NCBI RefSeq assembly: GCF_003334385.1
Contig: NZ_QOWN01000213.1
Length of the DNA stretch: 289 nucleotides
Strand: one strand, 5' to 3'
Source: Escherichia coli
GTDB lineage: Bacteria > Pseudomonadota > Gammaproteobacteria > Enterobacterales > Enterobacteriaceae
Shown: piece after piece, positions 2-289 of the stretch
How positions within the stretch are numbered: position 1 is the first letter of the stretch
Layout of the letters: each line of letters starts with the position of its first letter
Position numbers and translations under genes: made by a program
Notes under the pieces: model-generated
What the model was told of the DNA's origin: nothing
Database searches by the model: none
What the model saw: the letters and a program-made list of their open reading frames with translations, nothing else

Positions 2-77
2 TGGTGGGTCGTGCAGGATTCGAACCTGCGACCAATTGATTAAAAGTCAACTGCTCTACCAACTGAGCTAACGACCC
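2..77 (-). tRNA. tRNA-Lys, anticodon UUU, complete 76-nt gene with encoded CCA
   Basis: Reverse complement of 2-77 reads GGGTCGTTAGCTCAGTTGGTAGAGCAGTTGACTTTTAATCAATTGGTCGCAGGTTCGAATCCTGCACGACCCACCA. It folds as a canonical cloverleaf: acceptor stem GGGTCGT/ACGACCC, D stem GCTC/GAGC, anticodon stem GTTGA/TCAAT, anticodon loop CTTTTAA with anticodon TTT (plus-strand 42-44 = aaa), variable loop TGGTC, T stem GCAGG/CCTGC with T loop TTCGAAT, and 3' CCA at plus-strand 2-4 (tgg). From memory it is identical to the E. coli tRNA-Lys(UUU) gene family. The paralog cannot be named from the sequence alone; lysZ is possible if this is the lysY-lysZ interval. Confidence 0.97.
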
Positions 78-111
78 ATACGGGTGTTACCTGAAAGATT
101 TTTACTCGGGG

Positions 112-128
112 CCAATCTTTAAGATTGG
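112..128. other. Inverted repeat / hairpin ccaatct-(tta)-agattgg that overlaps the CCA of the orphan tRNA fragment
   Basis: 112-118 ccaatct is the reverse complement of 122-128 agattgg, giving a 7-bp stem with a 3-nt loop (the pairing could notionally extend to 8 bp but that leaves a 1-nt loop). On the minus-strand transcript the orphan CCA is the 5' strand of this stem. Function not established. Confidence 0.45.
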
Positions 129-143
129 TGGGTCGTGCAGGAT
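126..143 (-). repeat. Orphan 18-nt duplicate of the tRNA-Lys 3' end (part of T loop, 3' T stem, 3' acceptor strand, discriminator and CCA) inside the inter-tRNA spacer
   Basis: Plus-strand 126-143 tggtgggtcgtgcaggat is an 18/18 match to 2-19 and 224-241. Identity stops abruptly at 144 (gactc versus tcgaa in the genuine genes). No 5' acceptor strand, D arm or anticodon arm is recognisable upstream of it on the minus strand, so it is not a functional tRNA. Confidence 0.75.
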
Positions 144-157
144 GACTCGCTTCGCTC

Positions 158-184
158 GCCCTACGGGCCGTTGCTGGCGCAACG
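158..184. other. Two adjacent short GC-rich hairpins in the spacer: gccc-tac-gggc (158-168) and cgttgc-tggc-gcaacg (169-184)
   Basis: Read directly from the sequence: a 4-bp stem with 3-nt loop, followed by a 6-bp perfect stem with 4-nt loop. Neither is followed by a T/U tract on either strand. They are probably structural elements of the polycistronic tRNA precursor. Confidence 0.4.
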
Positions 185-197
185 TTATCCTTCACGC

Positions 198-220
198 TTA
201 ACATCTGAGTTTGATGTTAA
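198..220. other. AT-rich inverted repeat ttaacatc-(tgagttt)-gatgttaa, an 8-bp perfect stem with 7-nt loop, 3 nt downstream of the 3' CCA of the upstream tRNA-Lys copy
   Basis: 198-205 ttaacatc is the exact reverse complement of 213-220 gatgttaa. On the minus-strand transcript the hairpin starts 3 nt after the CCA of the 224-289 copy. No U-run follows, so it is not an intrinsic terminator. It is a candidate trailer-processing structure. Confidence 0.45.
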
Positions 221-223
221 AAC

Positions 224-289
224 TGGTGGGTCGTGCAGGATTCGAACCTGCGACCAATTGATTAAAAGTCAACTGCTCTACCAACTGAG
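224..289 (-). tRNA. tRNA-Lys, anticodon UUU, second copy truncated by the window edge (tRNA nt 11-76 present; 5' 10 nt would lie at 290-299)
   Basis: Positions 224-289 are 100% identical to 2-67, and position 223 equals position 1. The D stem/loop remainder, anticodon arm (TTT), variable loop, T arm, acceptor 3' strand and CCA are all present. Only the 5' acceptor strand is missing because the window ends. The repeat period is 222 bp. Confidence 0.93.

Follow-up and report, generated by a model that had tools for sequence, protein, structure and literature searches.

What is the role of a perfect hairpin that lies directly behind the CCA end of a tRNA inside a multi-tRNA transcript? The question is raised by a 289-nt stretch of Escherichia coli DNA (the window), which is the lysY–lysZ part of the lysT tRNA operon, transcribed from the minus strand. 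The window matches K-12-type E. coli chromosomes with 100% identity and with tRNA-Lys annotated at both match ends; the MG1655 names of these two genes are lysY and lysZ. The upstream gene, lysY (tRNA-Lys(UUU), 224–289, minus strand), is cut by the window edge and represented by its 3′ two-thirds, with the CCA at 226–224 and an Rfam tRNA match at 227–289 (54.7 bits, cut at the 5′ end). The downstream gene, lysZ (tRNA-Lys(UUU), 2–77, minus strand), was called by ARAGORN and scores 79.2 bits with Rfam. In a self-comparison of the window, 223–289 is an exact repeat of 1–67. Sub-threshold Rfam matches to Plastid-ycf2 and Plastid-psbI-rps4 at 4–77 and 227–265 on the plus strand lie antisense to the tRNA genes; these plastid UTR family matches are artefacts of the tRNA-like sequence. 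The genes are separated by a spacer of 146 nt (78–223), which is unusually structured as a whole (−43 kcal/mol, z = −2.9).

The hairpin, here called P0, occupies 198–220 on the minus strand and is supported by a perfect inverted repeat, covariation, strand-specific G·U pairs and a consensus fold. Its arms at 198–205 (TTAACATC) and 213–220 (GATGTTAA) are 100% complementary over 8 bp, with 7 nt between them. In the minus-strand RNA, the 5′ arm UUAACAUC (220–213) is followed by the loop AAACUCA (212–206) and the 3′ arm GAUGUUAA (205–198). The linker between the lysY CCA and the 8-bp stem (221–223, minus strand) consists of G223, U222 and U221, and a U221·G197 wobble adds a ninth pair. The 30-nt hairpin segment folds at −7.2 kcal/mol (z = −4.0), and none of 200 shuffles folds as well. 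Dinucleotide shuffling produces a perfect 8-bp hairpin with a loop of 3–10 nt in 1.1% of cases for the 146-nt spacer, and shuffling of the whole window does so in 2.5%. Thus the description given in an earlier note, a perfect 8-bp AT-rich hairpin 3 nt after the CCA, on the transcribed strand and within the 3′ trailer of the upstream tRNA-Lys, is accurate in each of these respects. P0 resembles an intrinsic (Rho-independent) terminator in being a stem–loop 3′ of a gene, but its stem is A/U-rich, with two G–C pairs out of eight, it is followed by GCGUGAAGG and not by a U tract, and transcription runs on into lysZ. No terminator-like site was called on the minus strand of the window. As the earlier note had also held, an intrinsic terminator is therefore ruled out.

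To follow the hairpin across species, genomes representative of their species were scanned for a tRNA-Lys 3′ end followed, after 20–45 nt, by AGGATAACG. The scan returned 89 loci (L002–L090), nearly all labelled enterobacterial, with 150 trailers, or 154 together with the four of the K-12-type locus L001. The trailers sort into several classes, of which the P0 class, defined by UUAACAUC...GAUGUUAA, occurs in at least 17 enterobacterial genera: Escherichia, Salmonella, Citrobacter, Enterobacter, Klebsiella, Raoultella, Kluyvera, Kosakonia, Leclercia, Lelliottia, Pluralibacter, Pseudescherichia, Pseudocitrobacter, Silvania, Superficieibacter, Trabulsiella and Huaxiibacter. The class is commoner after Val–Lys pairs (31 of 45 trailers) than at other positions (22 of 102). 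Other classes include a lysT-type (ATCGyT..GGTGGA..GCGAT) and a lysZ-type (ATTTAAAGGTGG), found at L001 984–1018 and 1799–1830 and in many scanned loci; both carry a conserved GGTGG complementary to the CCACC of the tRNA 3′ end, and GGGGTGGA is also present in some Kosakonia hairpin loops. One locus, L084, bears the label Chryseobacterium sp. 18061, but its lysT operon, hairpin unit included, is of typical enterobacterial form, and the assembly is probably contaminated or mislabelled.

Covariation was assessed on 49 distinct trailers, which were chosen by similarity of the 5′ arm alone (at most two substitutions) in order to avoid circularity, and the 3′ arm was then inspected. Standard pairs fill 97.3% of the pair cells in these trailers, and compensatory double changes, such as C–G to U–A, A–U to G–C and U–A to C–G, are present in seven of nine pairs. 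None of 500 shuffles matches any observed pairing measure, and sliding the 3′ partner by 1–3 columns reduces pairing to 35–45%. G·U-type cells number 44 on the tRNA strand, against two A·C-type cells, which would be G·U on the other strand. This asymmetry places the constraint on the sense transcript and not on duplex DNA or an antisense RNA, and both of these readings were rejected on that ground. The loop columns are variable in sequence, 7 nt being the commonest length, and the K-12 lysW trailer carries the same stem with another loop (GAAGACA), the lysW and lysY units differing further at window positions 192 and 176–177; a loop acting as a pairing or recognition sequence is accordingly unlikely. 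P0 is thus a conserved RNA secondary-structure element in which the pairing, and not the loop sequence, is under selection. The earlier note had left the conservation of the palindrome across species to be checked, with a non-conserved hairpin sequence as the contrary outcome; conservation, with covariation, is what was found. Two open reading frames overlap this region. A 54-aa ATG frame (40–204, minus strand) starts in the 3′ arm of P0 and runs into lysZ, and it was rejected as coding because many homologues lack its ATG (GATATT, GGTGTT and GACGTT variants). A 26-aa TTG frame (102–182, minus strand) is equivalent in frame to tpr, the 'protamine-like' ORF of the tyrT RtT, with RQQRPVGRAKR corresponding to RRQRPEGRSAR.

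The sequence that follows P0 belongs to a known type of repeat. The Rfam RtT model (RF00391) matches 126–289 on the minus strand with 47.6 bits, above the gathering score of 45, and the lysY–lysZ spacer with its full flanks in L001 scores 54.4 bits; RtT matches occur after all five K-12 tRNA-Lys genes of the lysT operon. The lysT-operon units share with RtT/RttR of tyrT–tyrV their place directly 3′ of a tRNA gene within a tRNA operon, a homologous GC-rich core (the CGUUGC hairpin and GGCCCG(A/U)AGGGC), a closing helix formed with a duplicate of the cognate tRNA 3′ end, the ...CCACCA ending and the occurrence of several repeats per operon. In the window, the 5′ strand of the closing helix (CGUGAAGGAU, 187–196, minus strand) is paired with 134–143 by RNAalifold, as CGUG(A)AGGAU with AUCCU(G)CACG, and the same helix is part of the Rfam consensus. 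The core contains an internal hairpin, CGUUGC-GCCA-GCAACG (169–184, minus strand), which is supported by folding, the Rfam match and the consensus fold and shows one compensatory U–A to C–G change and four U·G cells at one pair. The match ends with a duplicated tRNA-Lys 3′ end (AUCCUGCACGACCCACCA, 126–143, minus strand), which lies mid-spacer as an exact 18-nt copy of the tRNA-Lys end (ATCCTGCACGACCCACCA). Its positions 134–143 provide the 3′ strand of the closing helix, while 126–133 (ACCCACCA) form a free tail. The likeness of this copy to the real gene end extends 7 nt past the CCA (119–143, 25 nt at 92%). The element at 187–196 (GUGAAGGAU) has alternative partners, namely the decoy tRNA end at 134–143, as in the Rfam and alifold structures, or AUCUUUCAGG at 91–104; the latter pairing is the minimum-free-energy structure of the isolated spacer, and the two competing closing helices are similar in energy.

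P0 itself is no helix of the RtT consensus. Relative to the model, which has four positions there, it lies within an insertion of 44 nt; the first 14 positions of the consensus are unstructured, and it is the tRNA T arm, not P0, to which the 5′ part of the model aligns. The Tyr units have other 5′ parts, the Lys units end in the tRNA-Lys and not the tRNA-Tyr 3′ sequence, and release of a stable RNA is annotated for tyrT alone. The closing helix tracks the end of the cognate tRNA, being GGGGAAGGAU/AUCCUUCCCC in the Tyr units and CGUGAAGGAU/AUCCUGCACG in the Lys units, which amounts to covariation at the level of the family. P0 is an addition confined to one class of Lys trailers. Although the family score threshold is passed, P0 lies outside the family model and the Tyr 5′ parts differ, and the element is therefore best described as an RtT-like repeat that is linked to tRNA-Lys and carries an additional covarying helix on its 5′ side. 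The spacing of its parts is tight. In 45 of 47 trailers, 1–2 nt separate the CCA from the first paired base, and in 44 of 47 a single nucleotide, which pairs within the closing helix, lies between the last paired base and GUGA. In the consensus fold of 38 hairpin-class units computed with RNAalifold, P0 abuts the closing helix, with 187–196 following directly after G197 and zero unpaired bases between. P0 thus forms in the sense transcript, 1–3 nt after the CCA, with its last base contiguous with the closing helix, and is the first helix of an approximately 98-nt RtT-related structured repeat unit in the tRNA-Lys trailers of enterobacterial lysT operons.

Comparison of E. coli strains delimits this unit to 126–223 (minus strand), comprising the linker, P0, the RtT-like core and the copy of the tRNA 3′ end. 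The lysY–lysZ spacer measures 146 nt in K-12 and 48 nt in O127:H6, and those 48 nt correspond to window positions 78–125. The four long spacers of K-12 (135, 149, 146 and 132 nt) have counterparts of 35, 51, 48 and 33 nt in O127:H6, while HS and O157:H7 carry a mix of long and short spacers. Across the four operons compared, K-12-type (L001), HS (L093), O157:H7 (L094) and O127:H6 (L095), indels of 98–100 nt occur at all four long spacers, and the tRNA-Lys copy number varies from four to six. The unit is bounded by a direct repeat of the tRNA 3′ end (18 nt exact, 25 nt at 92%), and recombination between these 18–25-nt repeats explains the indel. The precise presence or absence together with the flanking direct repeats of the tRNA 3′ end shows that the unit is inserted or deleted as a whole and is dispensable. 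Empty sites are frequent: for many tRNA-Lys genes in the fetched loci, including those of other genera, the adjoining 3′ sequence is the one found behind the pseudo-CCA in K-12. Among 5426 complete E. coli genomes, whose matches were used for presence and absence only, 4068 carry at least 80% of the lysY–lysZ spacer and 1219 gave no megablast match to it. Since the unit is absent from many strains, any benefit it confers should be small or conditional.

The remainder of the spacer (78–125, minus strand) is the 5′ leader of lysZ and contains a palindrome at 112–128 (CCAATCTT/AAGATTGG) that overlaps the pseudo-CCA. Genomes without the 98-nt unit have a similar, less perfect inverted repeat directly 3′ of the real tRNA-Lys CCA and pairing with it, as in L067 (CCAATCT-TTG-AGATTGG, 7 bp) and O127:H6 (L095 749–796, CCAAT-TTTAAAC-ATTGG, 5 bp). 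At the other end of the operon, 13 hairpin-class units sit after the last tRNA-Lys, directly before the operon terminator. In L001 (2007–2200), this terminator (AAAAAAGCGCCCTAAAGGCGCTTTTTT) occurs twice after lysQ, flanking a further RtT unit with a tRNA-Lys 3′ copy that RefSeq labels 'RtT sRNA'; HS and O157:H7 have a single terminator and lack the unit.

Published work describes how the RNA of this operon is processed. Agrawal, Mohanty and Kushner found a single lysT transcript of about 1100 nt and a requirement for RNase P in separating all seven tRNAs, in 3′ to 5′ order (PMC4176162). The mature Lys fraction was 0.95 in rph-1, 0.89 in rne-1 rph-1 and 0.17 in rnpA49 rph-1, and on Northern blots rne-1 showed no new intermediates and rnpA49 was strongly defective (PMC4176162). 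RNase E has a minor role, its cuts in the long spacers occurring chiefly upon loss of RNase P activity, and the RNase E intermediates that then appear end after lysT and lysW (PMC4176162). The authors proposed that the Lys trailers of 133–150 nt are removed by RNase II and PNPase and that RNase T finishes the end; they reported terminator removal via an RNase P cut 2–3 nt after the lysV CCA, and nascent transcripts seemed to be protected until transcription is completed, possibly through structure (PMC4176162). That paper mentions neither the hairpin nor RtT-like repeats, and the literature searched contained no description of P0 or of RtT-like units in the lysT operon.

Mapped 3′ ends lie close to the tRNAs. 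Term-seq places them +3/+5 nt after the CCA for lysT, +3/+4 for lysZ, +2 for valT and +3 for valZ, with the lysT and lysZ ends, 3–5 nt after the CCA, being abundant (PMC7815308). For the lysT operon, its supplement lists ends only for lysT, valT, valZ, lysZ and lysQ (PMC7815308). The Term-seq tables searched hold none at Lys pseudo-CCA positions or in the lysW and lysY trailers, where multi-mapping may hide them, and the text of a Salmonella TIER-seq supplement has no rows under these lysT-operon gene names. In the tyrT–tyrV spacer, an abundant 'orphan' 3′ end was reported 4 nt after the pseudo-CCA of the unit (PMC7815308), at L092 1360, equivalent to NC_000913.3 position 1287359. Its offset equals that of the tyrT 3′ end, which suggests that the decoy end is processed in the manner of a tRNA end. 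The RttR RNA is annotated in the tyrT operon alone; its 5′ end lies 8 nt after the tyrV CCA, and its 3′ end coincides with the pseudo-CCA.

Considering these data together, the function that we infer, with slightly less than even confidence, is that P0 compacts the trailer repeat, confines the unpaired RNA to a few nucleotides behind the CCA and caps the excised spacer RNA on its 5′ side. Together with the closing helix, P0 would pack the unit into a compact fold that sequesters the decoy tRNA end, and the unpaired RNA beside the tRNA would be limited to ACCA plus 1–3 nt. With so little unpaired RNA there, the 3′ end would be made close to the CCA, whether by cutting or by trimming. The excised spacer RNA would resemble RttR from tyrT in having a tRNA-like ACCCACCA tail at its 3′ end, and its 5′ end would be base-paired, an arrangement that is known to slow 5′-end-dependent decay. 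The likeness here is to the stabilizing 5′ stem–loops of the ompA and papA 5′ UTRs. If the trailer were cut 1–3 nt after the CCA, the released RNA would start with a hairpin after at most 2–3 unpaired nucleotides, the geometry that blocks RppH and the 5′ sensor of RNase E; 5′ stem–loops lower both RppH action and RNase E 5′ sensing (PMC3985628). In contrast to those mRNAs, the lysT spacer RNA would be a processing by-product, and the cut is hypothetical. Against the capped-spacer reading, the published model, with 3′ exonucleases acting on the long Lys trailers, needs no defined spacer RNA. Under the compaction reading, the hairpin would serve the repeat unit itself, keeping it harmless, stable or both, and would not be a signal on which separation of the tRNAs depends. 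A role of P0 as an 'insulator' that aids tRNA folding was rejected: in partition-function folding of lysY with its trailer, a purely thermodynamic model that ignores co-transcriptional folding, the acceptor-stem probability is 0.24 with P0 and 0.62–0.97 when the hairpin is disrupted or deleted. The idea that P0 keeps the tRNA safe is thus without computational support.

The earlier note had gone from the position of the hairpin to a guide function, in which P0 would present A/U-rich nucleotides after the CCA to RNase E for the cut that separates the tRNAs. Its placement of the hairpin in the trailer of the transcribed strand and its non-terminator assignment stand, and the hairpin is conserved, but the guide role does not find support, and we regard it as unlikely. 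Several features do speak for it. The linker and stem base, (A/G)UUU, resemble the in vivo RNase E core motif RN|WUU (PMC5222698) and are conserved after the CCA; only 1–2 nt are unpaired before the 9-bp stem, although the basal U·G and U–A pairs could open transiently. A/U-rich nucleotides right after the CCA are likewise shared with the RNase E trailer sites of the argX-hisR-leuT-proM and glyW-cysT-leuZ type, and the position matches the 1–3-nt trailers reported there. Cutting of the long spacers upon RNase P inactivation and the abundant 3′ ends 3–5 nt after the lysT and lysZ CCA would also fit. Unlike in those operons, separation here depends on RNase P, as judged from mutants (PMC4176162), whereas RNase E inactivation yields no new intermediates and leaves mature tRNA-Lys at 0.89 versus 0.95; an RNase E cut within the 1–3-nt linker would offer a back-up route only. 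The A/U run is mostly base-paired, leaving a linker of just 1–3 nt, whereas Kime et al. attributed direct entry of RNase E on tRNA precursors to adjacent unpaired segments and not to stem–loops (PMC3985628). Moreover, the 13 homologous units behind the last tRNA lie where nothing remains to be separated, and the unit is missing from the O127:H6 spacers and unmatched in about one-fifth of complete E. coli genomes, unit-free strains having the same tRNA-Lys genes. The 3′ ends near the CCA could alternatively reflect an exonuclease roadblock, in which P0 slows RNase II and PNPase, as these digest the trailer from the 3′ end left by RNase P at the next tRNA, and passes a short-tailed precursor to RNase T, thereby protecting the CCA. 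This would agree with the published pathway, in which RNase II and PNPase degrade the long Lys trailers before RNase T acts, and with the pile-up of ends after lysT and lysZ. Yet those ends lie within or before the genes' own trailer structures, the Term-seq tables searched list none at the 3′ foot of the hairpin, the P0 stem is weak and A/U-rich, and an exonuclease arriving from the 3′ side would run into the far more stable RtT core before reaching it. Duplexes are not digested by RNase T, and a hairpin abutting the CCA would consequently hinder rather than help the final trimming, which makes a roadblock decidedly unlikely.

A co-transcriptional role is improbable. P0 might act as a pause hairpin that lets the tRNA fold before the decoy 3′ end emerges, or the densely structured spacer might deny Rho a loading site on an untranslated stretch of 146 nt. 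The folding energy of the whole spacer and the apparent protection of nascent transcripts until completion (PMC4176162) are compatible with such a role, but the loop and flanks have no recognisable pause signal, and short spacers of 33–51 nt work in unit-free strains. We find it highly improbable that P0 mimics an acceptor/T minihelix and is cut by RNase P at its 5′ foot just after the CCA. Its 7-nt loop and its position 1–3 nt after the CCA are suggestive, the terminator hairpins of lysV and lysQ have been proposed to be removed in this way, and the reported RNase P cut 2–3 nt after the lysV CCA offers a precedent (PMC4176162); the stem, however, has 9 and not 12 pairs, is followed by (G/A)CGU and not RCCA, and the linker lacks the U|G step that the authors invoked as context (PMC4176162). 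Scarcely credible is a function of the palindrome in DNA, as a protein-binding or recombination site such as a relic attachment site at the tRNA 3′ end. The direct repeats of the tRNA 3′ end bound the unit as they bound integrated elements, but recombination between these repeats accounts for the indel, and pairing maintained through G·U on one strand only would be unexpected for duplex DNA.

Beyond the compaction reading, each lysT-operon transcript might release up to four spacer RNAs of about 95–98 nt that act as decoys by mimicking the tRNA-Lys 3′ end, a possibility that we hold to be doubtful. Each such RNA would begin with P0 and end in the tRNA-Lys-like ACCCACCA tail, and candidate targets would include 3′ exonucleases, the CCA-adding enzyme or the stringent-response machinery. 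A decoy or mimic role of this kind was once suggested for RtT. As units are gained and lost by repeat recombination, the dose of decoy would vary between strains. A transcribed tRNA-operon spacer conserved beyond the apparent needs of tRNA maturation is also known in 3′ETS-leuZ, an sRNA sponge; that RNA acts through a single-stranded pairing sequence and Hfq, whereas here the stem is conserved and the loop is variable.

The spacers of tRNA operons are usually regarded as disposable, and for this operon the default equation of a hairpin after the CCA with an RNase E site is corrected, the genetics pointing to RNase P. The RtT-type repeat was already known; what is new, as far as the literature searched describes it, is the covarying 5′ helix of its Lys-linked version. 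This helix has been kept by compensatory evolution over at least 17 genera, and yet the unit that it opens is cleanly deletable within one species. Such a combination suggests selection on the repeat unit itself, either for its RNA product or for its harmlessness. Natural strains with and without the unit, together with a mutable stem, provide a handle on the function of RtT-type repeats.
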